A stretch of 60,000 nucleotides of DNA from Botryllus schlosseri (Eukaryota). The DNA lies in assembly GCA_051294905.1 (NCBI GenBank), contig CM119371.1, forward strand, positions 40,612,001 through 40,672,000, given 5' to 3'. Shown piece by piece: positions 3,521 through 51,685 of this stretch (its first letter is position 1; the number at the start of each line of letters is the position of its first letter). The notes beneath the pieces are model-generated. The model saw only the letters and a list, made by a program, of their open reading frames with translations, did not search any database and was not told the origin of the DNA. The translations under genes were made by a program, and so were the position numbers.

Positions 3521-3522
3521 AT

Positions 3523-15082: not shown

Positions 15083-17574
15083 TCCATTACACCATCAAAA
15101 TCGACCTATACCAGCAAAGGTCGACTCAACGCATATCACGGTAACCGTGTTCAGATATAGATACGATTGTTACCAGAACTTTGGAGCCGAAGCCGGAGCC
15201 CGGAGCCTGAGCCCCGGAGCCGTGCATTTTCGCCGGAGCTGGAGCCGGAGCCGGAGCTCTACATAAAATTTAGCCGGAGCCGGAGCCGGAGCTGGAGCCC
15301 GTTATTTGAGGAGTAGCTCCGGCTCCGACCTATTTCATAAGATGCTATTATATATGCAACAACCACATCTGCTGATTTATCATAATTGAACTGAATTTTA
15401 ATGCTGTGCACAGCAATGGCATGGAGTAAATTGCGTTCTAGTGCAACTATGATGTTGTCGACAATTGACAAGTATTCAATATGAAGTCACAAGCCGGCAC
15501 GGCGGCACCTAAGTAGTTAGTACGATCGCTCGCACATTGGCGTGGGGTTCTTATGGGCGGGGTGGCATGGTGCCGAGAAACCGGGGGTGGCATGGTGACC
15601 CTTATGTCTTATGGCGGGGGTGGCATGGTGCCATTGTGTCTTATGGCGGGGGTGGCATGGTTACCTTTTCGGGTATAGGCTGCGGCGGCATGGTGCCGTG
15701 AAACTCGTGTTGGCATATCGCGCTTTTAGACCCCCCCTTCCGCTCGCACATCGCCATTGGTTCTTATGGGCCCGCTCGCATGTCGCACTTTCGGGTATAG
15801 GCATCTCTCGCACATCGCATGGAAAACTCGTGGTGGCACATCGCCCTTTCGGGTATAGGCATCTCTCGCATGTCGTACTTTCGCGTATAGGTTGTGGTGG
15901 TGATTCGCCATGTGTTCTTATGGGTGCGGTCGTATGCGGCTATTGCGTCTTATGGCCCCTCTCGCACGGTAACTCTTTTCAGTATAGGGATCGCTCGCAC
16001 GCGGCTGGGAAACTCGTGGTGACATGCTAATGTTTTTTGGTATACGTGCGGCGACATGCTAACGACGATAAATGTGTCTGTCATGTATTCTTACGGGATC
16101 TGTGGTGACTCGCCATGTGTTCTTATGGGTGCGGTCGTGATTCGTACTTTCAGGCATCTCTCGCGCGGTGTTGAATATGTACGAGTCACCAACAATAACC
16201 GCACAAACGGAAACGTGGCTTGCAAGAGGATTTACGCAGTGCGTGCGACCTATATTCCGAACGACCTGCGCGCTGAATTATTTCTCGTCCAGCCGTGTGC
16301 TACTATCGATTATTACACTAGGTCAGTCAGTGCGAAATAGTTTGCTAAATCTAGGAATCACTTCCAAGGTAATATTTTGGTAATTAGTTTACCGCAGAGC
16401 CGGCGTAGCCGGCGATTCGAATATCAACAATAACCGCGCTCGCAAACTAACACTTCAAAAAGATGTGAAATATTTGTAAAATCCTACGATCGCTCACAAG
16501 ATACCACTTCCGGCATATCGATCTATCACTCAATACACAACCGAAGTTGAATTATAATTGAATGCGTAAATTTATCACCTCGGCATCAAAATTCGAAAAC
16601 AACAACTTGATGCTTTATGTTCTCACTATAATTTCGTGATAAGTGTAATAAGTGCCGAATAACAGATACACCCCCGGCGAGACTTGAATACCAACAAATT
16701 GTCACTTATTTCTATTCTAGCCGTAATCCTTTGTGAAGTTAACGCTTATTCAAAAAGGTGTGAAATATTTGCAAAACCCCGCGATCACTGACAAGATAAT
16801 GTCTCGGACATAACCATCTTTCACGACTTGGTGTCATAGCCAAACCGATCGCTCACGCGGTGAAATTTTAGTAAGCAGTTTGTCACAGAACTTGATTTCG
16901 CTGGTAAGATTTAACTAGTAACGAATAACAGACCGCCAGTGTCGGTAACTTGAATAGCGACAAATTGTCACTTATTTCCGCTCTAACCCTAATCCTTTGT
17001 GAAGTGAACGCTTATTCAAAAGGATGTGATATAATTTTAAAATCCAACGACCACTCACCGGATAATACTTCAGACATAGCAATTCCTCATACCCGCCCAC
17101 AAGGTAATATTTCGGTAATTAGTTTGTCACAGAACCGTCGCAGGCGGTGATTGGAAAACCGACAATTTGTCACTCGCCCGCGATCGCTATATGTTTCACG
17201 CCTCCAGAATAGTGGCTGACTTTAGTTGTGTGATAAGATCCATGAAAATATTCAATCAATGTGTTAGCTTATCAACTTGAAATGAAACTCACTACACAAA
17301 TCAAGTCGATTCGTATCTGAATGTTTTAAATCGACACAACTCAAATCCTTTGACAAATCCCTTAACGCGTTTTTGTTGAATCGAACGTAACCCGAATATT
17401 ACTGACGCCGACTTTCAGCCGCATCGAATTATTCGCACATTCCGCGTCGCTGTTTTCGCACTTATAGAATCAATACCAACTATAACTCTACAAGAATCAA
17501 GAATCACAAGTATGTGCATTACACAGTTATTGTCTTTATTAACTTGAAATCAAACACTTAACAAAAACACGCAA

Positions 17575-17940
17575 CTAATCATTTGGCAACTCTAGCATTA
17601 CCAAAAAATTCCAGTATTGTTGATTGAAAATCCTTGAGTCATTATTATCAAAAATGTTATAGTACCGCATCGGGATCCATTCGCGGGATGTACTAAAGGT
17701 AAATCCAAATAATCCACATTCGCGGGATGTACTAAAGGTAAATCCAAATAATCCACGTTCGCGGGATGTACTAAAGGTAAATCCAAATAATCCAGAATGA
17801 AATATTTGGACTTTGACATAGTGTGAATTGAAATAGGATTGACAAACACGACTACCAACTTTGATCCAGCCACATTTCAAGATCATACTTTGAAACAAGT
17901 AATGTAACATTACAACTCTATTCACGATCCCGCTTTCCAT
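17575..17940 (-). CDS. Hypothetical 121-aa arm protein (left-arm copy) with in-frame 39-bp repeat
   Basis: ATG start; AATAAA ~35 nt after the stop; present in all four arms. Confidence 0.35.
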   Translation of the reverse strand: MESGIVNRVVMLHYLFQSMILKCGWIKVGSRVCQSYFNSHYVKVQIFHSGLFGFTFSTSRERGLFGFTFSTSRECGLFGFTFSTSREWIPMRYYNIFDNNDSRIFNQQYWNFLVMLELPND

Positions 17941-20721
17941 TTGTCAAAGAGATATTTTAACATCTTACCATACTCAAAAGAATTATTCACAACATTAACA
18001 ATTGTTCAAAATCTAGTTTTCACTTACTTGATTATATCACTGCAACTCATAAATTTGAATTAATTCATCCTGGTTGTATTCGTATGCTCGGTCTTTTTTA
18101 TTCAATTGTAAAGGTTGTTACTATTCTGAAGACAAAGTATTTACAAATCGGTGCATATACGATTTGACTTGGACATACTATATTTCGAGTATACGAGATT
18201 TGAATGTCTGAACAATAACTGAGAAATAATTTATCACAATTAAATCCGTAATATTACAGCGTAAAAGATATTGGAATGTCAGCAACTCTGTAAGGTCATA
18301 GTTACTACCACTAATTTACCCGACCAACTCGTCATGATCATTCCTGAAATCAACACAAACGTGACCACTGACTTGAGTTAACCACAAAACAGCATCAAGT
18401 TTTAAATCCACTTGTAGCTTACGGCTTATTTGAATGCGGGTTATGTTTTGTTGTAATTGAGTGTACGGAAATAGTATTACGTCTCGACATATCACCATGT
18501 CGGAATTTGTGACAGAGAATTGAAACATATGCACTTTACAGAGTGTGAAAATATCACTTTGAGTATCGAGTACCGTTCGAAGCTAGCGATCAATTCTTAA
18601 TCATTTCAGTAACTCCCCATTGTGTGTGCTAAATGTAAAATATCGCGAGGTTATACACTCTAAGACTTTGATCATTACAAAAGTAAATTGTGATATGTTT
18701 GTTAGATGCATCCAATTCAACTAGAAGTGTCTAGTGCCCAACACTCGTAATATCAAAAAAGTACTTGCTACACTGTTATTTGCTACGTGTTATGCATTGT
18801 TGTTTATTTGTAGTATTGAATGAAATTGTTCTTGAACCCTCAAATAATAATCCCCGACATGAAACCAAGCCGCTGAAAGTCGTTACCATCACGAAGATAC
18901 AATGTGTACGATGTTTGTCAAATGTGTCCTACCTGACCAACAGAAAACAATTTTCACTAGCTTGGTAATGAAACCGAAGTCTCCATTCGATATTTTGTTT
19001 GTGTCAAATACTTTGCAATGAACACATTTGGGTGGTTGAGCTTTACATCATCAGACTGTCATCTGTACATCAAGAATACATCCGACTTGTAACCGGATCG
19101 TTTACCTAACCGAGTTGTATGCACAGTTTGATATTTTTGTCATTTAGTGATTGCTGAACATACCACTTCGAAATACTGCGTTGATCTTAATTTCCATCAT
19201 CGTGATAAGTGAAGTACATTTGTTTTGAATTCATAACAATAGGCTTTTCTACGACATGGTAAATTATTGACAAGTTCTGCTTAGAAGATTGGTTGCATAT
19301 CACGAAAAATAATATACCACACATATTATTACTGTTACTCCATTCATCGGCATTTTTTCCGTTGTCGATTTTCAAACGAGTAAAATTTATTACTTGAGTT
19401 GCTCTGCTTACTATATTTAAATGTAAACTCGCCCGTCTTTCAACAACAAACAATGTTAAAAAAGTATGCAATCAAACACAACAAGTTTTACGATACTAAT
19501 TATTATCCCACATAACCCATTTCTTACCGAAGACATATGAAATATATTCATGTTACACGAAAATATTCGCTCATGCTACAAACCTGTACAATGATTGGGG
19601 GTGCTTTCAAACTGTTTCGATACCTCAAGAACTTTATCGTCTGAACGGTTGTTCATGTATCGTAATAATCAAGTAGTTCAACATAGAACTAGTATTAACA
19701 GAAACATCAGAGTTGTTTACACAAAAGTTTGTATGCGTGCAGTATGCGAATACCATGTGTAAGTCCAGCACAATTGTGGTATCCATCCGGGTTTAGTTAA
19801 CACAATTTACGACACCGAGGTCACCTCATCTTTCGTAAGACAACAAACCAACCAAGGTTTCAGGATATGTCCGTGTCATAGCAATAAATCAGCTACTACA
19901 ACAACAGAGTACATATGTTTTCTAGTTACGGCGCTTACGTCTTACACACAAATCAATCCACTTTACTAACAAAAAGTGCTGGGTCATCAAGTGATTACCC
20001 TAACAACAAAACAGCTAAACGTACTATCATACAAAATGGCCGTTATAGTCACCAACGGTACATCGTACAAGTAACAAGTCTCGAGAATCCAGTTATTGAA
20101 AAAACATGAAAGTGTTTCTACACCAAGTCGTTATGTTGACGAAAGCGTATATTGTAATATCATGATCGATTTGCATTCGTTGGTCACAAAATGTCACTAC
20201 TCTAAATAATTATTTTTCAATCAAACACAAACGCATACTTGTCGCCAATCGTTTTCATCAAGCACGAGTTCAAGAAACCTGCTACGACATGAATTGTTAT
20301 TTTTTTATGTTGTGTAAATAGGTAATAATTAATTTTAGTAACACTATATCAACATCATCTAGTTGCGCGAATAGATTTACACGTGGTCTTGTGGTTTTAA
20401 TCGAAGTAAACAGCGCGGTCTAACGCGGAGTCATCTCTATTGTACAGCAACTCGGAAATCGAAATGCATGCATTAACATTTAAACAGCGATCGCGTTTCG
20501 TGACGCGAAAAATATGTTCACCACCGCGATACTCTGCACAGGCGTGCAAATCCTTTTCACACTCGTAATAGTATACCAACGGCTACCGGCGACAACGTTT
20601 AACAATACCAACGACACTAAACATACGATACCTACCCAAGTAAAATTTCCATTTTCACCTGGAGGTCAGCCGTTACCTGACTAAAAATACCATTGTCCTT
20701 TGGAGATTTATCGTTTACGCA

Positions 20722-21200
20722 GTGTAACAATCCCCTTTTCACTTGGAAATATATTTTTGACCTGGATAACAAACCCCTTTTCACTTGGAAATCTATTTTT
20801 GCCCTGGATAACAAACCCCTTTTCACTTGGAAATCTATTTTTGCCCTGGATAACAAACCTTTTTCACTTGGAAATATATTTTTTCTCTTGGTAACAAACC
20901 TTTTTCACTTGGAAATATATTTTTTCTCTGGTTAACAAACCTTTTTCACTTGGAAATATATTTTTTCTCTGGTTAACAAACCTTTTTCCACTTGGAAATA
21001 TATTTTTTCTCTGGTTAACAAACCTTTTTCACTTGGAAATATATTTTTTCTCTGGGTAACAAACCTTTTTCACTTGGAAATATATTTTTTTCTCTGGTTA
21101 ACAAACCTTTTTCACTTGGAAATATATTTTTTCTCTGGGCAACAAACCTTTTCCCCCGGGTAACAAACCTTTTTCCCTGAGCAACAAGCCATTTTCACTT
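20722..21200. repeat. 39-40-bp minisatellite in arm (AACAAACCTTTTTCACTTGGAAATATATTTTTTCTCTGGT)
   Basis: Roughly 11 units; mirrored at ~24120-24598; shorter arrays in copy 2. Confidence 0.9.
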
Positions 21201-22818
21201 GGTGGGTCGTCGTTTACCTGAGTAAAAATATCATTTTCCTTTGGAGATCTGGCGTTTACCCAGTGTAACAATACATTTTCTCTTGGTCATCTAGCTTTTC
21301 CTAGAGTAACTAATCATTTCTCCCGGGTAACAAACCCTTTTCGTCTGGAAAACTATCATTTACCCGAGTACCAATACCGTTTTCACTTGGAAATCTATCT
21401 TTTCCCTGGGTAACAATATCATTTTCGTTTTGAAAACTGACAACCACACCGGCCAATTTGATATTTTTGGATATTGCTACAACGGGTAGTGACAAAATAT
21501 ACACCAACAACGACTCCGATACATTTGTCTAATCAAATATTCACTTGCTCTGATGCATCCCATCAAAATCATTGGTTACTCACATACAATAACAATGTGC
21601 TGTTGTACATCGACATGTATGTTTTCGGAATTGGCGAATAAAGGGGTTTCCGATATGTCTGTGATGTCCGGGTTCGTGCTTTGGATTTTCCAGAGTCAAA
21701 ATGTCTGAATAAAACACCCCCCCCTTGACTTTGGTAACTGGTTGATACACGGATAATGGTGTTCGGAAAACGGATGAATTTATGTTCCCCATCGCGCTAA
21801 TAACTCCGGGTTACTTGTGAGTTTCCTCAGGTCTGTTTACTATATTGTGTCTTTACTGGTCAATACATGTCGCTCCAGTCAGCTGCAACCGGATCACTAA
21901 TATGAGAAAGTGTGTGGGCCTGATCCGGATATTCACTCATGAACCAACGACCAATATTCAAGTAAACATGTTACAGACCGTGTTTTGTCTCCATGAAAAA
22001 TACCAATGCATACACCATCACATACAAGTAACGTCACGATTGTTCACAAGTATTCGCGTAAACGAGGTGTACATACAATGTGTCGGTGTACAAACATCAT
22101 GGAAAACAAATTCATGTTCTCAAGTATCATCATGCGACGACTCTGTACATTCAATGTGGGCATAGATGACTTGGGGACAGACAAGCAGCCATATTTGGAC
22201 GTAACACGATCTTAGTATGAGCCGCCTCAACCCAACTTGTGAAAAATGAATCTCACACGAGTACAACCCTTTCACGGGTTCACACCTTGATTTTGCAAGA
22301 TTTTTCGGATTCTCATGTAGACTTGCATCGTGATCCAGACCTCGACTTAATCGGGTTGCGTAACTCGCTCAACCCCTGCGTATCGTTGGTCATAACCTGC
22401 TAACTTTTTCGCTGAGACCGCAGTGTTTCACCTGGTTTTATGTATTTGGTGATTACCATCGTTATCAATCTTTCACGCGATGAATATGTCGGATGTCGCT
22501 ACTCCCACATAACGACTCCAGCTAAACATCGTGAGCAGTGACTCCGGATTGAAATCGTAAACAGGGACTCTGTGTGTGTGTGTGAATCTCGAGTTCGATT
22601 ACGATTAGATAATGTAATCCAGGGTGTGTCTCTGCGAGCTGAAGGCGGATTTCGTGTTAATCACACCGCAAGAGGGTGCTATCTCGTAACTCGACAGGTC
22701 AACATAAATCGCGGTTGGAAACTTTTGGTCTAGTTGATCCAGCTACGTATTGAAACGTTGTACCCACACAGCCCATTGAGAAAATGTTGTCGTTACCTGA
22801 CCATATCCACGAGTAAAT

Positions 22819-23094
22819 ATGGGACTACGCGTAACTGTCCATAGATTCCTCTGGCCCCACACCGTGGTTTTACGACACAGACAAGATGCAGCGGTGGAAA
22901 TATTGAAAATGAAAAACGATACCTTGGTGACATTTGATTTGGATTTTACACCTGATGAACCATACACTCGATTGGTACATTGGGATGACAACTCTATCGT
23001 TGAGGTCAAGGGAAAAGAAATGTACAGATTTGTTGGTGTTGTGGATATTCAGCGAAAATCAGGGTATATGGTTGTGTATGGTTCGCATATTTGA
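22819..23094 (+). CDS. Conserved 91-aa hypothetical protein in the palindrome loop
   Basis: ATG to TGA; ungapped homolog of the same length at 45197-45472. Confidence 0.8.
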   Translation: MGLRVTVHRFLWPHTVVLRHRQDAAVEILKMKNDTLVTFDLDFTPDEPYTRLVHWDDNSIVEVKGKEMYRFVGVVDIQRKSGYMVVYGSHI

Positions 23095-23145
23095 CTGAGA
23101 ATATATCGGTATGCATAATGCACTGTCCATTGTATCATGTCGTGT

Positions 23146-26100
23146 GTCATCTATGCCCACATTGAATGTACAGAGTCGTCGCATGATGATACTTGAGAAC
23201 ATGAATTTGTTTTCCATGATGTTTGTACACCGACACATTGTATGTACACCTCGTTTACGCGAATACTTGTGAACAATCGTGACGTTACTTGTATGTGATG
23301 GTGTATGCATTGGTATTTTTCATGGAGACAAAACACGGTCTGTAACATGTTTACTTGAATATTGGTCGTTGGTTCATGAGTGAATATCCGGATCAGGCCC
23401 ACACACTTTCTCATATTAGTGATCCGGTTGCAGCTGACTGGAGCGACATGTATTGACCAGTAAAGACACAATATAGTAAACAGACCTGAGGAAACTCACA
23501 AGTAACCCGGAGTTATTAGCGCGATGGGGAACATAAATTCATCCGTTTTCCGAACACCATTATCCGTGTATCAACCAGTTACCAAAGTCAAGGGGGGGGG
23601 GGGTGTTTTATTCAGACATTTTGACTCTGGAAAATCCAAAGCACGAACCCGGACATCACAGACATATCGGAAACCCCTTTATTCGCCAATTCCGAAAACA
23701 TACATGTCGATGTACAACAGCACATTGTTATTGTATGTGAGTAACCAATGATTTTGATGGGATGCATCAGAGCAAGTGAATATTTGATTAGACAAATGTA
23801 TCGGAGTCGTTGTTGGTGTATATTTTGTCACTACCCGTTGTAGCAATATCCAAAAATATCAAATTGGCCGGTGTGGTTGTCAGTTTTCAAAACGAAAATG
23901 ATATTGTTACCCAGGGAAAAGATAGATTTCCAAGTGAAAACGGTATTGGTACTCGGGTAAATGATAGTTTTCCAGACGAAAAGGGTTTGTTACCCGGGAG
24001 AAATGATTAGTTACTCTAGGAAAAGCTAGATGACCAAGAGAAAATGTATTGTTACACTGGGTAAACGCCAGATCTCCAAAGGAAAATGATATTTTTACTC
24101 AGGTAAACGACGACCCACCAAGTGAAAATGGCTTGTTGCTCAGGGAAAAAGGTTTGTTACCCGGGGGAAAAGGTTTGTTGCCCAGAGAAAAAATATATTT
24201 CCAAGTGAAAAAGGTTTGTTAACCAGAGAAAAAAATATATTTCCAAGTGAAAAAGGTTTGTTACCCAGAGAAAAAATATATTTCCAAGTGAAAAAGGTTT
24301 GTTAACCAGAGAAAAAATATATTTCCAAGTGAAAAAAGGTTTGTTAACCAGAGAAAAAATATATTTCCAAGTGAAAAAGGTTTGTTAACCAGAGAAAAAA
24401 TATATTTCCAAGTGAAAAAGGTTTGTTACCAAGAGAAAAAATATATTTCCAAGTGAAAAAGGTTTGTTATCCAGGGCAAAAATAGATTTCCAAGTGAAAA
24501 GGGGTTTGTTATCCAGGGCAAAAATAGATTTCCAAGTGAAAAGGGGTTTGTTATCCAGGTCAAAAATATATTTCCAAGTGAAAAGGGGATTGTTACACTG
24601 CGTAAACGATAAATCTCCAAAGGACAATGGTATTTTTAGTCAGGTAACGGCTGACCTCCAGGTGAAAATGGAAATTTTACTTGGGTAGGTATCGTATGTT
24701 TAGTGTCGTTGGTATTGTTAAACGTTGTCGCCGGTAGCCGTTGGTATACTATTACGAGTGTGAAAAGGATTTGCACGCCTGTGCAGAGTATCGCGGTGGT
24801 GAACATATTTTTCGCGTCACGAAACGCGATCGCTGTTTAAATGTTAATGCATGCATTTCGATTTCCGAGTTGCTGTACAATAGAGATGACTCCGCGTTAG
24901 ACCGCGCTGTTTACTTCGATTAAAACCACAAGACCACGTGTAAATCTATTCGCGCAACTAGATGATGTTGATATAGTGTTACTAAAATTAATTATTACCT
25001 ATTTACACAACATAAAAAAATAACAATTCATGTCGTAGCAGGTTTCTTGAACTCGTGCTTGATGAAAACGATTGGCGACAAGTATGCGTTTGTGTTTGAT
25101 TGAAAAATAATTATTTAGAGTAGTGACATTTTGTGACCAACGAATGCAAATCGATCATGATATTACAATATACGCTTTCGTCAACATAACGACTTGGTGT
25201 AGAAACACTTTCATGTTTTTTCAATAACTGGATTCTCGAGACTTGTTACTTGTACGATGTACCGTTGGTGACTATAACGGCCATTTTGTATGATAGTACG
25301 TTTAGCTGTTTTGTTGTTAGGGTAATCACTTGATGACCCAGCACTTTTTGTTAGTAAAGTGGATTGATTTGTGTGTAAGACGTAAGCGCCGTAACTAGAA
25401 AACATATGTACTCTGTTGTTGTAGTAGCTGATTTATTGCTATGACACGGACATATCCTGAAACCTTGGTTGGTTTGTTGTCCTACGAAAGATGAGGTGAC
25501 CTCGGTGTCGTAAATTGTGTTAACTAAACCCGGATGGATACCACAATTGTGCTGGACTTACACATGGTATTCGCATACTGCACGCATACAAACTTTTGTG
25601 TAAACAACTCTGATGTTTCTGTTAATACTAGTTCTATGTTGAACTACTTGATTATTACGATACATGAACAACCGTTCAGACGATAAAGTTCTTGAGGTAT
25701 CGAAACAGTTTGAAAGCACCCCCAATCATTGTACAGGTTTGTAGCATGAGCGAATATTTTCGTGTAACATGAATATATTTCATATGTCTTCGGTAAGAAA
25801 TGGGTTATGTGGGATAATAATTAGTATCGTAAAACTTGTTGTGTTTGATTGCATACTTTTTTAACATTGTTTGTTGTTGAAAGACGGGCGAGTTTACATT
25901 TAAATATAGTAAGCAGAGCAACTCAAGTAATAAATTTTACTCGTTTGAAAATCGACAACGGAAAAAATGCCGATGAATGGAGTAACAGTAATAATATGTG
26001 TGGTATATTATTTTTCGTGATATGCAACCAATCTTCTAAGCAGAACTTGTCAATAATTTACCATGTCGTAGAAAAGCCTATTGTTATGAATTCAAAACAA

Positions 26101-29100: not shown

Positions 29101-29808
29101 GCCACGTTTCCGTTTGTGCGGTTATTGTTGGTGACTCGTACATATTCAACACCGCGCGAGAGATGCCTGAAAGTACGAATCACGACCGCACCCATAAGAA
29201 CACATGGCGAGTCACCACAGATCCCGTAAGAATACATGACAGACACATTTATCGTCGTTAGCATGTCGCCGCACGTATACCAAAAAACATTAGCATGTCA
29301 CCACGAGTTTCCCAGCCGCGTGCGAGCGATCCCTATACTGAAAAGAGTTACCGTGCGAGAGGGGCCATAAGACGCAATAGCCGCATACGACCGCACCCAT
29401 AAGAACACATGGCGAATCACCACCACAACCTATACGCGAAAGTACGACATGCGAGAGATGCCTATACCCGAAAGGGCGATGTGCCACCACGAGTTTTCCA
29501 TGCGATGTGCGAGAGATGCCTATACCCGAAAGTGCGACATGCGAGCGGGCCCATAAGAACCAATGGCGATGTGCGAGCGGAAGGGGGGGTCTAAAAGCGC
29601 GATATGCCAACACGAGTTTCACGGCACCATGCCGCCGCAGCCTATACCCGAAAAGGTAACCATGCCACCCCCGCCATAAGACACAATGGCACCATGCCAC
29701 CCCCGCCATAAGACATAAGGGTCACCATGCCACCCCCGGTTTCTCGGCACCATGCCACCCCGCCCATAAGAACCCCACGCCAATGTGCGAGCGATCGTAC
29801 TAACTACT
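23146..29808 (-). repeat. Right inverted arm of copy 1
   Basis: Reverse complement of 15512-22170. Confidence 0.95.
27380..27745 (+). CDS. Hypothetical 121-aa arm protein (right-arm copy)
   Basis: Mirror of 17575-17940; AATAAA at 27780. Confidence 0.35.
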   Translation: MESGIVNRVVMLHYLFQSMILKCGWIKVGSRVCQSYFNSHYVKVQIFHSGLFGFTFSTSRERGLFGFTFSTSRECGLFGFTFSTSREWIPMRYYNIFDNNDSRIFNQQYWNFLVMLELPND

Positions 29809-29911
29809 CACCTATATGTCTTTGTTGCTACATCGGATATTACTGACGGCTGACGGACTCTAGATTACTATAGATAACTAACCTATTAGTAGATTAGTAA
29901 TCCATAGAGAC

Positions 29912-38592: not shown

Positions 38593-41500
38593 AGTAGTAT
38601 AGTCGATCGGTCGCAGATCGTAATGGGTTTCTTATGGGTGCACCCGACCGGTGCCGCGAAACTCGTCCTGAACCGGTGACCCTTTCAGACCCCCCTTCCA
38701 CCCGACCGGTGCCTGGGTTTGTATAGACATCTCTCGACCGGTAACCCTTTTCGGTATAGGGATCACTCAACCGGTGCCTCGAAACTCGTCTTGAACCGGT
38801 GACCATTTTCGGTATAGGGATCACTCAACCGGTGCCTCGAAAACTCGTGTTGGTGAGTCGTACTTTCGGGTAACGACATCTCTCGCACGTCGTACTTTCG
38901 CATGTCGTGCTTTGGCGTATAGGCTGTGTTGGTGACTCGCCATGTGTTCTTATGGGTGTGGTCGTGATTCGTACTTTCAGGCATCTCTCGCGCGGTGTTG
39001 AATAGTCACCAACAATAACCGCACAAACGGAAACGTGGCTTGCAAGAGGATTAAGCAGTGCGACCTATATTCCGAATGACCTGCGCGCTGAATTGTTTCA
39101 AGGCCAACCGCGTGCTACTATCGAATATTACACTAGACCAGTCAGTGTGAAATAGTTTGCTAAATCTAGGAGTCACTTCCAAGGTAATATTTTGGTAATT
39201 AGTTTACCACAGAGCCGGCGTAGACGGCGATTCGAATATCAACAATAACCGCATTCACAAACTAACACTTAAAAAATGTGTGAAATAGTTTGCAAAACCC
39301 CGCGATCTCTGACAAGATAATGTCTCGGACATAACCATCTTTCGCGACTTGGTGTTACAGGCATATCGATCACTCACGCGGTGAAATATTCGTGAGCATC
39401 ACTCGCAGAATTATATTTTGGTAATTATTTTGTCACAGAGCCGGCGTAGACGACGATTCCAACACCAACAATAACCGTGCACACAAACTAACACTTCAAA
39501 AATGTGTGAAATAGTTTGCAAAACCCCAGCGATCGCTGACAAGATAATGGCTCGGGTGACATGATAACGTTACAGGTATAGGCTGTGGTGGTGATTCGCC
39601 GTGTGTTCTTATGGGTGCGCTCGCACGTCGTACTTTCAAGTATAGGTATCTCTCGCATGCCGTATTGGAAACTCGTGTTGGCTCGCTCACGCGGTGAAAT
39701 TTTAGTAAGCAGTTTGTCACAGAACTTGATTTCGCTGGTAAGATTTAACAAATAACGAATAACAGACCGCCAGTGTCGGTAACTTGAATAGCGACAAATT
39801 GTCAATTATTTCCGCTCTAACCCTAATCCTCTGTGAAGTGAACGCTTATTCAAAAGGGCGTGATATAATTTTAAAATCCGACGACCACTCACCGGCTAAT
39901 GCTTCAGACATAGCAATCCCTCATGTCCGCTCACAAGGTAATATTTCGGTAATTAGTTTGTCCCAGAACCATCGCAGACGGTGATTCGAAAACCAACAAT
40001 TTGTCACTCGCCCGCGATCGCTATATGTTTCACGCCTCCAGAATAGTGGCTGACTTTAGTTGTGTGATAAGATCCATGAAAATATGCAATCAATGTGTTA
40101 GCTTATCAACTTGAAATGAAACTCACTACACAAATCAAGTCGATTCGTATCTGAATGTTTTAAATCGACACAACTCAAATCCTTTGACAAATCCCTTAAC
40201 GCGTTTTTGTTGAATCGAACGTAACCCGAATATTACTGACGCCGACTTTCAGCCGCATCGAATTATTCGCACATTACGCGTCGCTGTTTTCACACTTATA
40301 GAATCAATACCAACTATAACTCTACAAGAATCAAGAATCACAAGTATGTGCATTACACAGTTATTGTCTTTATTAACTTGAAATCAAACACTTAACAAAA
40401 ACACGCAACTAATCATTTGGCAACTCTAGCATTACCAAAAAATTCCAGTATTGTTGATTGAAAATCCTTGAGTCATTATTATCAAAAATGTTATAGTACC
40501 GCATCGGGATCCATTCGCGGGATGTACTAAAGGTAAATCCAAATAATCCACATTCGCGGGATGTACTAAAGGTAAATCCAAATAATCCAGAATGAAATAT
40601 TTGGACTTTGACATAGTGTGAATTGAAATAGGATTGACAAACACGACTACCAACTTTGATCCAGCCACATTTCAAGATCATACTTTGAAACAAGTAATGT
40701 AACATTACAACTCTATTCACGATCCCGCTTTCCATTTGTCAAAGAGATATTTTAACATCTTACCATACTCAAAAGAATTATTCACAACATTAACAATTGT
40801 TCAAAATCTAGTTTTCACTTACTTGATTATATCACTGCAACTCATAAATTTGAATTAATTCATCCTGGTTGTATTCGTATGCTCGGTCTTTTTTATTCAA
40901 TTGTAAAGGTTGTTACTATTCTGAAGACAAAGTATTTACAAATCGGTGCATATACGATTTGACTTGGACATACTATATTTCGAGTATACGAGATTTGAAT
41001 GTCTGAACAATAACTGAGAAATAATTTATCACAATTAAATCCGTAATATTACAGCGTAAAAGATATTGGAATGTCAGCAACTCTGTAAGGTCATAGTTAC
41101 TACCACTAATTTACCCGACCAACTCGTCATGATCATTCCTGAAATCAACACAAACGTGACCACTGACTTGAGTTAACCACAAAACAGCATCAAGTTTTAA
41201 ATCCACTTGTAGCTTACGGCTTATTTGAATGCGGGTTATGTTTTGTTGTAATTGAGTGTACGGAAATAGTATTACGTCTCGACATATCACCATGTCGGAA
41301 TTTGTGACAGAGAATTGAAACATATGCACTTTACAGAGTGTGAAAATATCACTTTGAGTATCGAGTACCGTTCGAAGCTAGCGATCAATTCTTAATCATT
41401 TCAGTAACTCCCCCATTGTGTGTGCTAAATGTAAAATATCGCGAGGTTATACACTCTAAGACTTTGATCATTACAAAAGTAAATTGTGATATGTTTGTTA

Positions 41501-44500
41501 GATGCATCCAATTCAACTAGAAGTGTCTAGTGCCCAACACTCGTAATATCAAAAAAGTACTTGCTACACTGTTATTTGCTACGTGTTATGCATTGTTGTT
41601 TATTTGTAGTATTGAATGAAATTGTTCTTGAACCCTCAAATAATAATCCCCGACATGAAACCAAGCCGCTGAAAGTCGTTACCATCACGAAGATAGAATG
41701 TGTACGATGTTTGTCAAATGTATCCTACCTGACCAACAGAAAACAATTTTCACTAGCTTGGTAATGAAACCGAAGTCTCCATTCGATATTTTGTTTGTGT
41801 CAAATACTTTGCAATGAACACATTTGGGTGGTTGAGCTTTACATCATCAGACTGTCATCTGTACATCAAGAATACATCCGACTTGTAACCGGATCGTTTA
41901 CCTAACCGAGTTGTATGCACAGTTTGATATTTTTGTCATTTAGTGATTGCTGAACATACCACTTCGAAATACTGCGTTGATCTTAATTTCCATCATCGTG
42001 ATAAGTGAAGTACATTTGTTTTGAATTCATAACAATAGGCTTTTCTACGACATGGTAAATTATTGACAAGTTCTGCTTAGAAGATTGGTTGCATATCACG
42101 AAAAATAATATACCACACATATTATTACTGTTACTCCATTCATCGGCATTTTTTCCGTTGTCGATTTTCAAACGAGTAAAATTTATTACTTGAGTTGCTC
42201 TGCTTACTATATTTAAATGTAAACTCGCCCGTCTTTCAACAACAAACAATGTTAAAAAAGTATGCAATCAAACACAACAAGTTTTACGATACTAATTATT
42301 ATCCCACATAACCCATTTCTTACCGAAGACATATGAAATATATTCATGTTACACGAAAATATTCGCTCATGCTACAAACCTGTACAATGATTGGGGGTGC
42401 TTTCAAACTGTTTCGATACCTCAAGAACTTTATTGTCTGAACGGTTGTTCATGTATCGTAATAATCAAGTAGTTCAACATAGAACTAGTATTAACAGAAA
42501 CATCAGACTTGTTTACACAAAAGTTTGTATGCGTGCAGTATGCGAATACCATGTGTAAGTCCAGCACAATTGTGGTATCCATCCGGGTTTAGTTAACACA
42601 ATTTACGACACCGAGGTCACCTCATCTTTCGTAAGACAACAAACCAACCAAGGTTTCAGGATATGTCCGTGTCATAGCAATAAATCAGCTACTACAACAA
42701 CAGAGTACATATGTTTTCTAGTTACGGCGCTTACGTCTTACACACAAATCAATCCACTTTGCTAACAAAAAGTGCTGGGTCATCAAGTGATTACCCTAAC
42801 AACAAAACAGCTAAACGTACTATCATACAAAATGGCCGTTATAGTCACCAACGGTACATCGTACAAGTAACAAGTCTCGAGAATCCAGTTATTGAAAAAA
42901 CATGAAAGTGTTTCTACACCAAGTCGTTATGTTGACGAAAGCGTATATTGTAATATCATGATCGATTTGCATTCGTGGTCACAAAATGTCACTACTCTAA
43001 ATAATTATTTTTCACTCAAACACAAACGCATACTTGTCGCCAATCGTTTTCATCAAGCACGAGTTCAAGAAACCTGCTACGACATGAATTGTTATTTTTT
43101 TATGTTGTGTAAATAGGTAATAATTAATTTTAGTAACACTATATCAACATCATCTAGTTGCGCGAATAGATTTACACGTGGTCTTGTGGTTTTAATCGAA
43201 GTACACAGCGCGGTCTAACGCGGAGTCATCTCTATTGTACAGCAACTCGGAAATCGAAATGCATGCATTAACATTTAAACAGCGATCGCGTTTCGTGACG
43301 CGAAAAATATGTTCACCACCGCGATACTCTGCACAGGGCGTGCAAATCCTTTTCACACTCGTAATAGTATACCAACGGCTACCGGCGACAACGTTTAACA
43401 ATACCAACGACACTAAACATACGATACCTACCCAAGTAAAATTTCCATTTTCACCTGGAGGTCAGCCGTTACCTGACTAAAAATACCATTGTCCTTTGGA
43501 GATTTATCGTTTACCCAGTGTAACAATCCCCTTTTCACTTGGAAATATATTTTTGACCTGGATAACAAACCCCTTTTCACTTGGAAATCTATTTTTGCCC
43601 TGGATAACAAACCCCTTTTCACTTGGAAATATATTTTTTCTCTGGTTAACAAACCTTTTTCACTTGGAAATATATTTTTTCTCTTGGTAACAAACCCCTT
43701 TTCTCTGGGTAACAAACCTTTTTCACTTGGAAATTTATTTTTTCCCCAGGTAACAAACCTTTTTCGCTTGGAAATATATTTCTCCCTGGGTTACAAACCT
43801 TTTTCACTTGGTGGTCCGTCGTTTACCTGAGTAAAAATATCATTTTCCTTTGGGGGATCTGGCGTTTACCCAGTGTAACAATACATTTTCTTTTGGTCAT
43901 CTAGCTTTTCCTAGAGTAACAAAACCATTTTCATTTTGAAATCTGACAAACACACCTGACAATTTGATATTTTTGTATATTGTTACAACGGATAGCGACA
44001 AAATATACACCAACAACAACTCCAATACATTTGTGTAATCGCATATTCACTTGTGCTGATGCAACCCATCAATATCATCGGTTACCCGCATGCAATATCC
44101 TCTTGTACACCGAAATGCATGTTTTGGAAAATTGGACAATAGGCTTCGATAGTTCTGTGATGTCCGGGTTCGTGCTTTGGATTTTCCAGAGTCAAAATGT
44201 CTGAATAAAACACCTCCTCGACGATGGTTGGTATGTGGATAACGGGGTTCGGAAGACGGTTGGATTTATGTCACCCATCGCGATAACAATTCCAGGTCGA
44301 GTTTTCCCCCCGCATGTTTACTATATTGTGTCTTTATTGGTCAATGTATGTCTCGACATTCAGTTTGAAATCGGAATTGATAAAGTATGTAACCGGATCC
44401 GGATATCAACTCTGAATCGATAAACCAATGAACAATATTCAAAGTAAACATGTTACATTCCACGAAAAAATACCATCCAGACATACGTCGCGCTTGTTTG

Positions 44501-44660
44501 CCCACAACAGTATACGCGTAAATGGAGGTGTGTGACATTGCATGCAATGTGTTGGTATACAAACATCGATCCACAGACATTATCATAGCCGGTAATTTTG
44601 ATGCAGATCGAATGTCACCCGATAACAATACCAATAAGCCACATTGCAATGACTCTGAGT
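38593..44660 (+). repeat. Left inverted arm of copy 2 (~6.07 kb)
   Basis: Reverse complement of 45580-51685. Confidence 0.95.
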
Positions 44661-45196
44661 ACGCGCTATGACATCGATATTTCGACACCGTTCACTGATT
44701 TATTCGATGGTGTTATCGTGTTGTAACATTACAAGATAGTCATGACCCTATCTGCAGACGGACCACCCAGACTAATTGGATACATCGGTCAATATCCATC
44801 GTGTTGTCGACACCGAAGTCTTCTGCTGCAGCGTTTGACCAATGTGAAATATCGAAGTACGGGTGCTCGAAATGATTGCGATCAGTCTTTCAGTCACGAT
44901 CAATGGATGTCGCTACTCCCACATAACGACTCCGGATAAATATCGTGCAAATGTCGGACTGATATTGTGATCCAATAAGGTATGTTTCTGTGGAATGAAG
45001 ACTGCAATCGTACACCACAATAGAACACTACCTCGTGATTTCACACGCAATCATAAAACACACTTTCGTAAGGGTCTAGCTCGTCCGGTGACATTTCGAA
45101 ACGGTCGTCACCACAAGAGATCGGATTTGGTCTCGTCATATCGGAGCATTTTGAAACGACATCGTCACAAGTCTATTGACGTCGATTCAGTTGGTC

Positions 45197-45472
45197 ATGT
45201 CAATCCGTTTCACAATCCACCGTTTTTCAACTCCCCGCACCATAGTGTTACGACACAGACAAGAAGCGTCGGTGGAAATAATAAAACACGGAAAGCACAC
45301 TTTGGTGTTCTTTGACATGGATTTTACACCCGACGAACCTCACATTCGAGCGATGCATTGGAATGACGCTTGTATTATTGATGTAGAAGGAACAGAAATG
45401 TATCGATTTATTGGTTTCGTACGTATCCAACAAAAATCTGGGTATATGATTGTGCATGGTTCGCATATTTGA
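45197..45472 (+). CDS. Conserved 91-aa hypothetical protein in the palindrome loop
   Basis: ATG at 45197 inside track ORF 45176-45472; aligns without gaps to 22819-23094. Confidence 0.8.
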   Translation: MSIRFTIHRFSTPRTIVLRHRQEASVEIIKHGKHTLVFFDMDFTPDEPHIRAMHWNDACIIDVEGTEMYRFIGFVRIQQKSGYMIVHGSHI

Positions 45473-45579
45473 CTGTGATCACAATATTGGTATGTACTGT
45501 ATAGTTCACTTTCACCGTCGTGCGAATAACCCATGTTACGGTTCGGTGTTTGTGTGTCCGTATGTCACGCTTCAGATTG

Positions 45580-48500
45580 ACTCAGAGTCATTGCAATGTG
45601 GCTTATTGGTATTGTTATCGGGTGACATTCGATCTGCATCAAAATTACCGGCCATGATAATGTCTGTGGATCGATGTTTGTATACCAACACATTGCATGC
45701 AATGTCACACACCTCCATTTACGCGTATACTGTTGTGGGCAAACAAGCGCGACGTATGTCTGGATGGTATTTTTTCGTGGAATGTAACATGTTTACTTTG
45801 AATATTGTTCATTGGTTTATCGATTCAGAGTTGATATCCGGATCCGGTTACATACTTTATCAATTCCGATTTCAAACTGAATGTCGAGACATACATTGAC
45901 CAATAAAGACACAATATAGTAAACATGCGGGGGGAAAACTCGACCTGGAATTGTTATCGCGATGGGTGACATAAATCCAACCGTCTTCCGAACCCCGTTA
46001 TCCACATACCAACCATCGTCGAGGAGGTGTTTTATTCAGACATTTTGACTCTGGAAAATCCAAAGCACGAACCCGGACATCACAGAACTATCGAAGCCTA
46101 TTGTCCAATTTTCCAAAACATGCATTTCGGTGTACAAGAGGATATTGCATGCGGGTAACCGATGATATTGATGGGTTGCATCAGCACAAGTGAATATGCG
46201 ATTACACAAATGTATTGGAGTTGTTGTTGGTGTATATTTTGTCGCTATCCGTTGTAACAATATACAAAAATATCAAATTGTCAGGTGTGTTTGTCAGATT
46301 TCAAAATGAAAATGGTTTTGTTACTCTAGGAAAAGCTAGATGACCAAAAGAAAATGTATTGTTACACTGGGTAAACGCCAGATCCCCCAAAGGAAAATGA
46401 TATTTTTACTCAGGTAAACGACGGACCACCAAGTGAAAAAGGTTTGTAACCCAGGGAGAAATATATTTCCAAGCGAAAAAGGTTTGTTACCTGGGGAAAA
46501 AATATATTTCCAAGTGAAAAAGGTTTGTTACCCAGAGAAAAGGGGTTTGTTACCAAGAGAAAAAATATATTTCCAAGTGAAAAAGGTTTGTTAACCAGAG
46601 AAAAAATATATTTCCAAGTGAAAAGGGGTTTGTTATCCAGGGCAAAAATAGATTTCCAAGTGAAAAGGGGTTTGTTATCCAGGTCAAAAATATATTTCCA
46701 AGTGAAAAGGGGATTGTTACACTGGGTAAACGATAAATCTCCAAAGGACAATGGTATTTTTAGTCAGGTAACGGCTGACCTCCAGGTGAAAATGGAAATT
46801 TTACTTGGGTAGGTATCGTATGTTTAGTGTCGTTGGTATTGTTAAACGTTGTCGCCGGTAGCCGTTGGTATACTATTACGAGTGTGAAAAGGATTTGCAC
46901 GCCCTGTGCAGAGTATCGCGGTGGTGAACATATTTTTCGCGTCACGAAACGCGATCGCTGTTTAAATGTTAATGCATGCATTTCGATTTCCGAGTTGCTG
47001 TACAATAGAGATGACTCCGCGTTAGACCGCGCTGTGTACTTCGATTAAAACCACAAGACCACGTGTAAATCTATTCGCGCAACTAGATGATGTTGATATA
47101 GTGTTACTAAAATTAATTATTACCTATTTACACAACATAAAAAAATAACAATTCATGTCGTAGCAGGTTTCTTGAACTCGTGCTTGATGAAAACGATTGG
47201 CGACAAGTATGCGTTTGTGTTTGAGTGAAAAATAATTATTTAGAGTAGTGACATTTTGTGACCACGAATGCAAATCGATCATGATATTACAATATACGCT
47301 TTCGTCAACATAACGACTTGGTGTAGAAACACTTTCATGTTTTTTCAATAACTGGATTCTCGAGACTTGTTACTTGTACGATGTACCGTTGGTGACTATA
47401 ACGGCCATTTTGTATGATAGTACGTTTAGCTGTTTTGTTGTTAGGGTAATCACTTGATGACCCAGCACTTTTTGTTAGCAAAGTGGATTGATTTGTGTGT
47501 AAGACGTAAGCGCCGTAACTAGAAAACATATGTACTCTGTTGTTGTAGTAGCTGATTTATTGCTATGACACGGACATATCCTGAAACCTTGGTTGGTTTG
47601 TTGTCTTACGAAAGATGAGGTGACCTCGGTGTCGTAAATTGTGTTAACTAAACCCGGATGGATACCACAATTGTGCTGGACTTACACATGGTATTCGCAT
47701 ACTGCACGCATACAAACTTTTGTGTAAACAAGTCTGATGTTTCTGTTAATACTAGTTCTATGTTGAACTACTTGATTATTACGATACATGAACAACCGTT
47801 CAGACAATAAAGTTCTTGAGGTATCGAAACAGTTTGAAAGCACCCCCAATCATTGTACAGGTTTGTAGCATGAGCGAATATTTTCGTGTAACATGAATAT
47901 ATTTCATATGTCTTCGGTAAGAAATGGGTTATGTGGGATAATAATTAGTATCGTAAAACTTGTTGTGTTTGATTGCATACTTTTTTAACATTGTTTGTTG
48001 TTGAAAGACGGGCGAGTTTACATTTAAATATAGTAAGCAGAGCAACTCAAGTAATAAATTTTACTCGTTTGAAAATCGACAACGGAAAAAATGCCGATGA
48101 ATGGAGTAACAGTAATAATATGTGTGGTATATTATTTTTCGTGATATGCAACCAATCTTCTAAGCAGAACTTGTCAATAATTTACCATGTCGTAGAAAAG
48201 CCTATTGTTATGAATTCAAAACAAATGTACTTCACTTATCACGATGATGGAAATTAAGATCAACGCAGTATTTCGAAGTGGTATGTTCAGCAATCACTAA
48301 ATGACAAAAATATCAAACTGTGCATACAACTCGGTTAGGTAAACGATCCGGTTACAAGTCGGATGTATTCTTGATGTACAGATGACAGTCTGATGATGTA
48401 AAGCTCAACCACCCAAATGTGTTCATTGCAAAGTATTTGACACAAACAAAATATCGAATGGAGACTTCGGTTTCATTACCAAGCTAGTGAAAATTGTTTT

Positions 48501-51500
48501 CTGTTGGTCAGGTAGGATACATTTGACAAACATCGTACACATTCTATCTTCGTGATGGTAACGACTTTCAGCGGCTTGGTTTCATGTCGGGGATTATTAT
48601 TTGAGGGTTCAAGAACAATTTCATCCAATACTACAAATAAACAACAATGCATAACACGTAGCAAATAACAGTGTAGCAAGTACTTTTTTGATATTACGAG
48701 TGTTGGGCACTAGACACTTCTAGTTGAATTGGATGCATCTAACAAACATATCACAATTTACTTTTGTAATGATCAAAGTCTTAGAGTGTATAACCTCGCG
48801 ATATTTTACATTTAGCACACACAATGGGGGAGTTACTGAAATGATTAAGAATTGATCGCTAGCTTCGAACGGTACTCGATACTCAAAGTGATATTTTCAC
48901 ACTCTGTAAAGTGCATATGTTTCAATTCTCTGTCACAAATTCCGACATGGTGATATGTCGAGACGTAATACTATTTCCGTACACTCAATTACAACAAAAC
49001 ATAACCCGCATTCAAATAAGCCGTAAGCTACAAGTGGATTTAAAACTTGATGCTGTTTTGTGGTTAACTCAAGTCAGTGGTCACGTTTGTGTTGATTTCA
49101 GGAATGATCATGACGAGTTGGTCGGGTAAATTAGTGGTAGTAACTATGACCTTACAGAGTTGCTGACATTCCAATATCTTTTACGCTGTAATATTACGGA
49201 TTTAATTGTGATAAATTATTTCTCAGTTATTGTTCAGACATTCAAATCTCGTATACTCGAAATATAGTATGTCCAAGTCAAATCGTATATGCACCGATTT
49301 GTAAATACTTTGTCTTCAGAATAGTAACAACCTTTACAATTGAATAAAAAAGACCGAGCATACGAATACAACCAGGATGAATTAATTCAAATTTATGAGT
49401 TGCAGTGATATAATCAAGTAAGTGAAAACTAGATTTTGAACAATTGTTAATGTTGTGAATAATTCTTTTGAGTATGGTAAGATGTTAAAATATCTCTTTG
49501 ACAAATGGAAAGCGGGATCGTGAATAGAGTTGTAATGTTACATTACTTGTTTCAAAGTATGATCTTGAAATGTGGCTGGATCAAAGTTGGTAGTCGTGTT
49601 TGTCAATCCTATTTCAATTCACACTATGTCAAAGTCCAAATATTTCATTCTGGATTATTTGGATTTACCTTTAGTACATCCCGCGAATGTGGATTATTTG
49701 GATTTACCTTTAGTACATCCCGCGAATGTGGATTATTTGGATTTACCTTAGTACATCCCGCGAATGGATCCCGATGCGGTACTATAACATTTTTGATAAT
49801 AATGACTCAAGGATTTTCAATCAACAATACTGGAATTTTTTGGTAATGCTAGAGTTGCCAAATGATTAGTTGCGTGTTTTTGTTAAGTGTTTGATTTCAA
49901 GTTAATAAAGACAATAACTGTGTAATGCACATACTTGTGATTCTTGATTCTTGTAGAGTTATAGTTGGTATTGATTCTATAAGTGTGAAAACAGCGACGC
50001 GTAATGTGCGAATAATTCGATGCGGCTGAAAGTCGGCGTCAGTAATATTCGGGTTACGTTCGATTCAACAAAAACGCGTTAAGGGATTTGTCAAAGGATT
50101 TGAGTTGTGTCGATTTAAAACATTCAGATACGAATCGACTTGATTTGTGTAGTGAGTTTCATTTCAAGTTGATAAGCTAACACATTGATTGCATATTTTC
50201 ATGGATCTTATCACACAACTAAAGTCAGCCACTATTCTGGAGGCGTGAAACATATAGCGATCGCGGGCGAGTGACAAATTGTTGGTTTTCGAATCACCGT
50301 ATGCGATGGTTCTGGGACAAACTAATTACCGAAATATTACCTTGTGAGCGGACATGAGGGATTGCTATGTCTGAAGCATTAGCCGGTGAGTGGTCGTCGG
50401 ATTTTAAAATTATATCACGCCCTTTTGAATAAGCGTTCACTTCACAGAGGATTAGGGTTAGAGCGGAAATAATTGACAATTTGTCGCTATTCAAGTTACC
50501 GACACTGGCGGTCTGTTATTCGTTATTTGTTAAATCTTACCAGCGAAATCAAGTTCTGTGACAAACTGCTTACTAAAATTTCACCGCGTGAGCGAGCCAA
50601 CACGAGTTTCCAATACGGCATGCGAGAGATACCTATACTTGAAAGTACGACGTGCGAGCGCACCCATAAGAACACACGGCGAATCACCACCACAGCCTAT
50701 ACCTGTAACGTTATCATGTCACCCGAGCCATTATCTTGTCAGCGATCGCTGGGGTTTTGCAAACTATTTCACACATTTTTGAAGTGTTAGTTTGTGTGCA
50801 CGGTTATTGTTGGTGTTGGAATCGTCGTCTACGCCGGCTCTGTGACAAAATAATTACCAAAATATAATTCTGCGAGTGATGCTCACGAATATTTCACCGC
50901 GTGAGTGATCGATATGCCTGTAACACCAAGTCGCGAAAGATGGTTATGTCCGAGACATTATCTTGTCAGAGATCGCGGGGTTTTGCAAACTATTTCACAC
51001 ATTTTTTAAGTGTTAGTTTGTGAATGCGGTTATTGTTGATATTCGAATCGCCGTCTACGCCGGCTCTGTGGTAAACTAATTACCAAAATATTACCTTGGA
51101 AGTGACTCCTAGATTTAGCAAACTATTTCACACTGACTGGTCTAGTGTAATATTCGATAGTAGCACGCGGTTGGCCTTGAAACAATTCAGCGCGCAGGTC
51201 ATTCGGAATATAGGTCGCACTGCTTAATCCTCTTGCAAGCCACGTTTCCGTTTGTGCGGTTATTGTTGGTGACTATTCAACACCGCGCGAGAGATGCCTG
51301 AAAGTACGAATCACGACCACACCCATAAGAACACATGGCGAGTCACCAACACAGCCTATACGCCAAAGCACGACATGCGAAAGTACGACGTGCGAGAGAT
51401 GTCGTTACCCGAAAGTACGACTCACCAACACGAGTTTTCGAGGCACCGGTTGAGTGATCCCTATACCGAAAATGGTCACCGGTTCAAGACGAGTTTCGAG

Positions 51501-51685
51501 GCACCGGTTGAGTGATCCCTATACCGAAAAGGGTTACCGGTCGAGAGATGCCTATACAAACCCAGGCACCGGTCGGGTGGAAGGGGGGTCTGAAAGGGTC
51601 ACCGGTTCAGGACGAGTTTCGCGGCACCGGTCGGGTGCACCCATAAGAAACCCATTACGATCTGCGACCGATCGACTATACTACT
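45580..51685 (-). repeat. Right inverted arm of copy 2
   Basis: Reverse complement of 38593-44660 with one extra 38-bp repeat unit near 49690-49765. Confidence 0.95.

Follow-up and report, generated by a model that had tools for sequence, protein, structure and literature searches.

Near-palindromic, gene-less elements with Polinton ends in the genome of Botryllus schlosseri and their probable mobilisation by gene-bearing relatives

The window analysed here, a stretch of 60,000 nucleotides of Botryllus schlosseri DNA (GenBank assembly GCA_051294905.1, contig CM119371.1, positions 40,612,001 to 40,672,000 of the forward strand), contains two near-palindromic elements, W1 and W2, which carry Polinton-type ends and encode nothing recognisable. 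They are very probably palindromic non-autonomous derivatives of a Polinton/Maverick, helper-dependent, of inverted-dimer-like form and mobilised in trans; the mobilisation itself we infer. With gene-bearing Polintons of the same genome they share a terminal repeat of approximately 0.85 kb at 80-93% identity. Ends of the (AGT)2 or (AG)3 type together with target-site duplications (TSDs) of 6 bp are reported for Mavericks in the available part of PMC8097293, and a Polinton by definition encodes a protein-primed DNA polymerase (pPolB) and an integrase, according to the accessible text of PMC5499653. W1 and W2 possess neither of these genes, and are therefore Polinton derivatives, not Polintons proper.

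Structure and insertion of W1 and W2

Both elements begin with AGTAGT and end with ACTACT, each lie between perfect direct repeats of 6 bp, and consist for about 93% of their length of two inverted arms surrounding a unique centre (Table 1). The inverted matches comprise 15512-21724/23596-29808 (6213 nt) and 21717-22170/23146-23599 (454 nt) for W1, and 38593-40530/49748-51685 (1938 nt) and 40512-44660/45580-49728 (4149 nt) for W2. The arm identity of "100%" in the output of the inverted-repeat search is a rounded value; direct counting, used in its place, gave 12 mismatches in 6667 nt for W1 (99.82% identity) and 5 in 6087 nt for W2 (99.92%). Nine of the 12 W1 mismatches are located in a single 82-nt patch (16835-16916 versus 28404-28485), which resembles a small recombination or conversion tract and of which neither arm version is clearly nearer to any other copy compared. 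The window contains four occurrences of a 21-nt end pattern, each of them at an end of W1 or W2, whereas 0.02 would be expected. Words of the 41-nt tandem repeat of W1 are among the best-conserved palindrome-specific words (9/9 copies).

The longest stop-to-stop open reading frame (ORF) measures 143 aa inside W1 and 149 aa inside W2. None of 40 ORFs of at least 60 aa from the left arm and centre of W1 reached a curated Pfam cut-off, no transposase ORF was among them, and the sole Pfam match listed for the arms, DUF3660, scored 19.2 bits, under its cut-off of 25. An rve integrase was found in neither W1 nor W2 by Pfam and translated searches, a tblastn search of both elements with the polymerase ORF of a gene-bearing copy gave no match, and an Rfam scan of the window returned no family. 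The first-pass annotation of this DNA, made from the letters and a list of ORFs, had described two independent insertions with these ends and duplications, arms of about 93%, loops under 1 kb, no ORF over about 150 aa and no Polinton genes; all of this is confirmed, and the near-full palindromes hold with the amendment that their arms are not perfectly identical.

W1 and W2 are both sited in other repeats, so that paralogous empty sites were available for comparison. When the 500 nt to the left and the 500 nt to the right of each element were searched separately against the whole genome, the two flanks of W1 met at uninterrupted copies of the target repeat in 18 places and those of W2 in nine, in each case with an overlap of exactly 6 bp. 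These empty sites fix the boundaries and the 6-bp duplication and rule out an assembly artefact. W1 and W2 are true insertions, and young ones. Contigs from three other studies also connect arm position 22170 with 23145 on the opposite strand, matching the second arm-centre junction, a weak support given that their shorter sides measure just 19-33 nt. The host repeat of W1 (15012-15511, 29809-30308) is very abundant, the left and right flank searches having given 3,836 and 1,859 first-look candidates, with copies 92-98% identical, and an rve integrase fragment lies immediately upstream of the element on the minus strand (13786-14790). W2 interrupts a Ty3/Gypsy-type retrotransposon with reverse transcriptase (RT), RNase H and integrase, which spans 37075-38631 and 51599-55668 of the window. 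The 500 nt flanking W2 have eight other genomic copies at 98-100% identity, and thus the retrotransposon that was hit is itself young.

Table 1. Coordinates of W1, W2 and the interrupted target of W2 in the window (position 1 is its first nucleotide).
Feature	Coordinates	Strand	Length	Remarks
W1, whole palindromic, probably non-autonomous element	15512..29808	.	14,297 bp	inverted-match, end and direct-count data; 18 empty paralogous sites
W1 left TSD, CACCTA	15506..15511			same hexamer at 29809-29814
W1 right TSD, CACCTA	29809..29814
W1 left arm	15512..22170	+	6,659 nt	12 mismatches versus right arm
W1 unique centre (loop)	22171..23145	.	975 nt
W1 right arm	23146..29808	-	6,663 nt
W1 terminal part homologous to terminal inverted repeats of gene-bearing Polinton copies	15512..16344	+		mirror 28976-29808
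W1 subterminal repeats, GGGGTGGCATGG type	within 15512..16344		~32 nt
W1 41-nt tandem repeat	20724..21152	+		~10 copies; mirror 24168-24596
W2, whole palindromic, probably non-autonomous element	38593..51685	.	13,093 bp	9 empty paralogous sites, 6-bp flank overlap
W2 left TSD, AACGGG	38587..38592
W2 right TSD, AACGGG	51686..51691
W2 left arm	38593..44660	+	6,068 nt	subterminal repeats of ACCGGTG type
W2 unique centre	44661..45579	.	919 nt
W2 right arm	45580..51685	-	6,106 nt	one 39-nt repeat unit more than left arm
Ty3/Gypsy-type pol frame, integrase part, interrupted target of W2	37075..38631	-
Ty3/Gypsy-type pol frame, RT/RNase H part, interrupted target of W2	51599..54118	-

Gene-bearing relatives, shared ends and copy number

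In the 495-Mb genome (219 contigs), the first 589 nt of W1 match paired sites 11-18 kb apart on many contigs, and ten further family copies were fetched as sequence. Seven of these are near-palindromic, with arms of 4.6-5.6 kb by longest inverted match, and three have terminal repeats of 784-916 nt only, together with long ORFs. The gene-bearing copies are 15.5-16.5 kb long and their terminal repeats are 96.6-99.6% identical between the ends. One of them encodes a protein-primed PolB (PF03175, 34.2 bits, cut-off 25.8) in a 1300-aa ORF, an rve integrase (59.4 bits) with a Chromo domain (37.5 bits), and a P-loop ATPase-like ORF having weak Pfam matches only (RNA_helicase, 22.2 bits with a cut-off of 21.5; Pox_A32, below cut-off). 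A genome search for pPolB yielded 386 first-look candidates; the 36 that were scored all match at 92-100% identity along most of the sequence, and 23 of them are stop-free. A marker for gene-bearing copies (a 24-nt word of the best-conserved ORF, with at most two mismatches) has 98 genomic occurrences, compared with 0 for its control, and the nearest polymerase outside this genome is only 42% identical. A diverse and recently active Polinton/Maverick family is thus present in the genome of B. schlosseri.

The homology between W1 or W2 and the gene-bearing copies is confined to the terminal repeat and an additional 165-nt piece (71% identity) beside it, on the side of the putative protease. Gene-bearing copies cover 4-20% of the length of the palindromic copies, essentially their termini, and in a translated search with all ORFs of one gene-bearing copy, nine of the ten palindromes matched only spurious ORFs of the terminal repeat, the tenth keeping one small Polinton ORF in both arms. 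The first 21 nt of one gene-bearing copy are identical to those of two palindromic copies. In the first 1 kb of 12 copies, at least four types of subterminal repeat motif were observed (GGGGTGGCATGG, CTCGCACATCG, ACCGGTG and GGGGTGGTGAGG), two of which are common to gene-bearing and palindromic copies. TSDs were read in 14 copies, a count that does not include copy C12a, whose limits were not bounded: 12 are perfect 6-bp duplications and two match at five of six positions. The first-pass annotation had inferred a helper Polinton and proposed to look for one sharing the termini and for copies with distinct 6-bp TSDs throughout the genome, and both were encountered. With cis-acting ends shared with a coding element, no genes, and many copies that have TSDs of their own, the palindromes have the properties of non-autonomous derivatives; at 13-14 kb, W1 and W2 are not of the length of miniature inverted-repeat transposable elements (hundreds of bp).

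In an 18.1-kb palindrome (L037+L038, C8:10881200-10900000), the arms are identical over 5603 nt, and both have preserved an open reading frame of 214 aa with 93% identity to one of 218 aa that adjoins the terminal repeat of a gene-bearing copy; part of the putative protease gene is present in the centre. This copy may represent a form between helper and satellite. Two non-palindromic relatives, L053 (C1:21592362-21599184; 6.6 kb, terminal repeats of 878 nt) and L054 (C1:19317105-19320606; 3.3 kb, terminal repeats of 369 nt), both possess a perfect 6-bp TSD, and their internal sequence is collinear with a single palindrome arm.

The end motif was found 945 times in forward and 946 times in reverse orientation genome-wide (controls 12 and 15), and a palindrome-arm marker 640 and 630 times (controls 0 and 0). 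This marker, a 21-nt word present in both arms of all nine marker-tested palindromes and in none of three gene-bearing copies, undercounts the family, because one marker-less copy that was fetched is a palindrome and another has arm matches in both orientations. By these counts, there are roughly six or more palindromes for every gene-bearing copy. Among the first 100 ends of the list, 39 end pairs were formed and 22 ends were left unpaired; 25 of the 39 pairs span 12.2-15.0 kb and two are under 7 kb (3.3 and 6.6 kb), while 18 contain a plus/minus arm-marker pair of their own and one contains the gene marker. The lengths thus cluster just below that of the helper, in agreement with the first-pass remark that they approach the size of a Polinton genome. 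At C1:16768420-16810257 (G000), three family members are nested in each other, each with its own arm-marker pair and with net lengths of about 13.1, 14.0 and 14.7 kb. The family would make up about 2-3% of the genome if each end pair corresponds to one element of approximately 14 kb.

Gene-based Polinton searches would overlook this palindrome family. In our literature searches, no account of Polinton derivatives that are palindromic or non-coding was encountered, although Repbase may contain a prior entry. The phrase "non-autonomous polintons" was found only for Tlr1 (available text of PMC5499653), and the accessible part of the Anolis paper reports no non-autonomous Polintons.

Origin of the palindrome and concerted change of its arms

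The centre measures 907-978 nt in six of the ten palindromic copies, and in eight of the ten the centre sequence and the arm boundaries are homologous. The centres form two subgroups, 84-95% alike within and partially matching (75-94%) between them. The W1 centre is 91.5% identical to that of the copy at C1:10441924-10455629 and partly matches the W2-type centres (75-94%), and the W2 centre is found in four other copies at full length, with the same boundaries and 84-91% identity. This conservation of centre and boundaries indicates a single origin of the palindrome, followed by the spread and diversification of the entire structure; the view that a palindrome was formed anew at each insertion has to be corrected accordingly.

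The palindromic copies share between 27 and 88% of their length at 82-93% identity. Between W1 and W2, the end modules are 62-90% identical, the inner arms 98-100% (17153-20900) and the centres 54-69%, and both elements are mosaics whose end modules appear to have been exchanged by recombination. Four other contigs contain a 1566-nt arm segment at 99-100% identity. Local conversion between the neighbours W1 and W2 was rejected as the source of this similarity, since equally similar inner arms exist on those four contigs, which points to recombination among lineages of a recent burst. On the sequence data, the family has moved recently.

Substitutions between the two arms of one element amount to 0-0.63% in all ten palindromes and to 0.18% or less in eight of them. 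For nine pairs of elements, the four arms were aligned and the site patterns counted: per pair, 368-1242 sites differ between the elements yet agree on both arms of each, 6-42 sites show a difference in a single arm, and not one site in the nine pairs has a left/right pattern. The arms therefore evolve in concert, with nearly every substitution of a lineage having been copied across to the other arm, a process that is measurable over hundreds of copies.

The remainder of the window contains several features outside the two elements. A small fold-back at 194-1695 consists of arms 194-579/1310-1695 (386 nt, 95%) followed by 577-906/985-1314 (330 nt, 84%) around a 78-nt centre, its size being unrelated to the Polinton family. 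The region 2036-3604 is GC-rich (0.50), with a strongly negative GC skew and a 129-nt tandem repeat (4.4 copies), and the long ORFs of its two strands (296, 314 and 425 aa) overlap and belong to no Pfam family. An interstitial CCTAA/CCCTAA run is located at 6526-6658 (about eight copies of a 17-nt compound unit); arthropods typically have telomere repeats of the TTAGG type, with which the protein-atlas matches agree. A remnant of another DNA transposon is probably represented by a 207-aa ORF on the minus strand (8147-8770), whose C-terminal domain is of the TNP-like RNase H type (PF21789, 29.5 bits).

Proposed mechanism, alternatives and known systems

We propose that the W1/W2 family keeps only the cis-acting ends of its parent, i.e. 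the AGTAGT terminus and the terminal repeat with its subterminal motifs, and that proteins from the approximately 100 gene-bearing copies in the same genome copy and insert the palindromes. The protein-primed PolB of the helper would start replication at the AGT-repeat ends, and its rve integrase would generate the 6-bp duplication. Some of the listed copies start with three AGT units in place of two, at both ends of the same element; such variation in unit number would fit the slide-back start of protein-primed replication, and Maverick terminal repeats are likewise said to fit a jumping-back start in the available part of PMC8097293. A displaced or excised single strand would necessarily form a hairpin about 6.6 kb long, and the arms might be kept alike either by mismatch repair in the stem of this hairpin or by re-making one arm from the other through copy-back; we put this explanation of the arm similarity at about even odds. 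The helper may in turn require a certain length, in the simplest case one that fills its capsid, and the inverted-dimer form and the narrow length of 13-15 kb would then be a consequence; by analogy, we consider the chances of this again to be about even. We infer a copy-back origin for the palindrome and a capsid limit for its length. Taken together, the palindromes would be natural satellites of a Polinton virus: gene-less inverted dimers, replicated by protein priming through a full-length hairpin intermediate, and packaged in the helper capsid under a length rule. This reading is tentative, and we assign it a probability of roughly 0.4.

If true, the satellite-genome reading would explain why the 13-15 kb palindrome dominates over short deletion derivatives, and would constitute indirect genomic evidence for animal Polinton virions and for a single-stranded fold-back stage. 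The architecture of the palindromes and their length distribution read like the product of a packaging or replication constraint, so that this abundant non-coding parasite touches on two questions concerning Polintons/Mavericks, particle formation and mode of replication. The requirements in cis would be narrowed to about 0.85 kb or less per end, the sole homology common to all palindromes and the helper. Plain sequencing of DNA that is protected or extrachromosomal could also put Polinton replication and encapsidation to the test.

Several observations weigh against the proposed mechanism. The short, non-palindromic L053 and L054 insert as well, so neither the palindrome nor a length of 13 kb is strictly needed for insertion, and two sequenced palindromes, of 16.4 and 18.1 kb, are at or above the length of the helper. 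Similar lengths could moreover come from one common ancestor. About 5 kb of arm sequence is not Polinton-derived. One copy has no arm differences in 5603 nt, yet its TSD matches at only five of six positions, a combination that youth and in-place correction of the arms would fit equally. The Polinton/Maverick virion module comprises a double jelly-roll (DJR) capsid protein, a packaging ATPase and an adenain-like protease; for the candidate capsid and protease ORFs of the helper, Pfam and PDB sequence searches gave no match. A 432-aa ORF of the gene-bearing copies adjoins DJR-like (PF21738) protein-atlas clusters (score 0.98), PF21738 being found in 14-30% of the cluster members, and is a lead only.

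The alternative that deserves most attention retains mobilisation by a Polinton, but has the arms kept alike by chromosomal arm-to-arm gene conversion and the common length inherited, rather than imposed by a capsid or by replication. Concerted change of the arms is the expected result of conversion in place, the copy with identical arms and an imperfect TSD and the W1 patch of nine mismatches are both in line with it, and the short non-palindromic relatives, which likewise insert, accord with an inherited length. Copies that are 7-18% apart nevertheless all have arms within 0.63%, and conversion would thus need to be fast in every master lineage; a similar near-identity of the short terminal repeats of the gene-bearing copies fits youth at insertion, and the lengths are narrow even though the copies share merely 27-88% of their sequence. 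Hairpin-stage repair and chromosomal conversion both predict the concerted pattern, and these data do not separate them; on balance, we regard conversion with an inherited length as rather unlikely.

A use by the host, in which transcription of a palindrome yields a long hairpin RNA and this RNA, by way of the termini common to both, supplies a small-RNA silencing of Polintons, is suggested by structure alone: if read through, an element would give a 6-kb RNA duplex whose arms include the 0.85 kb common to the helper. Among the sequence records listed as containing the sequence, none is registered as RNA, and in one raw RNA run, 53 reads out of 12.9 million records matched, 47 of them only partly, which provides no basis for a conclusion on expression in either direction. 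Copy number, recent spread and TSDs are those of a selfish element, and no single locus shows a sign of selection, which makes such a role improbable. It is very improbable that the palindromes belong to another superfamily, as Foldback-like elements moved by a DDE transposase with coincidentally Polinton-like ends: their long inverted arms with internal tandem repeats do recall Foldback and Galileo, but about 0.85 kb of terminal homology links them to copies encoding pPolB and rve integrase, their first 21 nt recur unchanged at the start of a gene-bearing copy, and they combine a 6-bp TSD and AGTAGT ends with the lack of a transposase ORF. Long reads are known to give artefacts in the form of near-perfect 6-kb inverted repeats, e.g. 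fold-back chimeras, but such an origin of the palindromes is hardly conceivable in view of exact ends, TSDs and empty paralogous sites with 6-bp overlap, of hundreds of copies with a conserved centre and nested insertions, and, weakly, of the contigs from other studies spanning the arm-centre junction.

Among known systems, the palindromes share with Polintons/Mavericks the (AGT)2 ends, the 6-bp TSD and the terminal inverted repeats, and their gene-bearing relatives in this genome encode pPolB and rve integrase; W1 and W2 differ in having no recognisable genes, in devoting 93% of their length to two inverted arms, and in being homologous over only some 0.85 kb per end. Large genomic palindromes, such as those of sex chromosomes, are kept alike by arm-to-arm gene conversion. 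They too have arms that are more than 99% identical while the whole sequence diverges, but they are single immobile loci, in contrast to the hundreds of mobile copies with TSDs described here. The closest structural look-alikes are Foldback and Galileo of Drosophila, with long inverted arms, internal tandem repeats and a short centre, which are set apart by superfamily and TSD length; their ends are different, their arms fall far short of 6 kb, and the TSD of Foldback is 9 bp. Galileo belongs to a P-like superfamily, according to the available text of PMC3573991.

Lepidopteran Polintons resemble the present family in that their inverted ends (about 2 kb and gene-carrying) have grown into internal sequence, as described in the accessible part of bioRxiv 10.1101/2025.02.07.637071, and the 18.1-kb palindrome with its 214-aa Polinton ORF in both arms is similar in this respect. 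They retain a full gene set between the repeats, whereas here the repeats account for almost all of the element and core genes are absent.

By analogy, the closest functional analogue is the inverted-dimer form of a helper-dependent adenovirus genome. Like helper-dependent ("gutless") adenovirus and incomplete particles, the palindromes are gene-less, keep only the ends, would depend on a protein-primed helper and have the form of an inverted dimer, and, as in snap-back defective genomes, two inverted copies of one end add up to a length near that of the helper. In the portion of PMC4189039 available, helper-dependent genomes under about 75% of the wild-type length are stated to rearrange, a 15-kb genome, of half length, was packaged as direct and inverted dimers, and the packaging window is given as 75-105%; the palindromes have about 80-93% of the length of their helper. 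For Mavericks, a length constraint of about 10% around 17 kb is reported, again in the available part of PMC8097293. Adenovirus dimers are forms of the laboratory or of a single infection and do not integrate, whereas the palindromes of B. schlosseri, known from genomic sequence and only hypothetically packaged, are heritable, integrate, possess a conserved 0.9-kb centre and have diversified into subfamilies.

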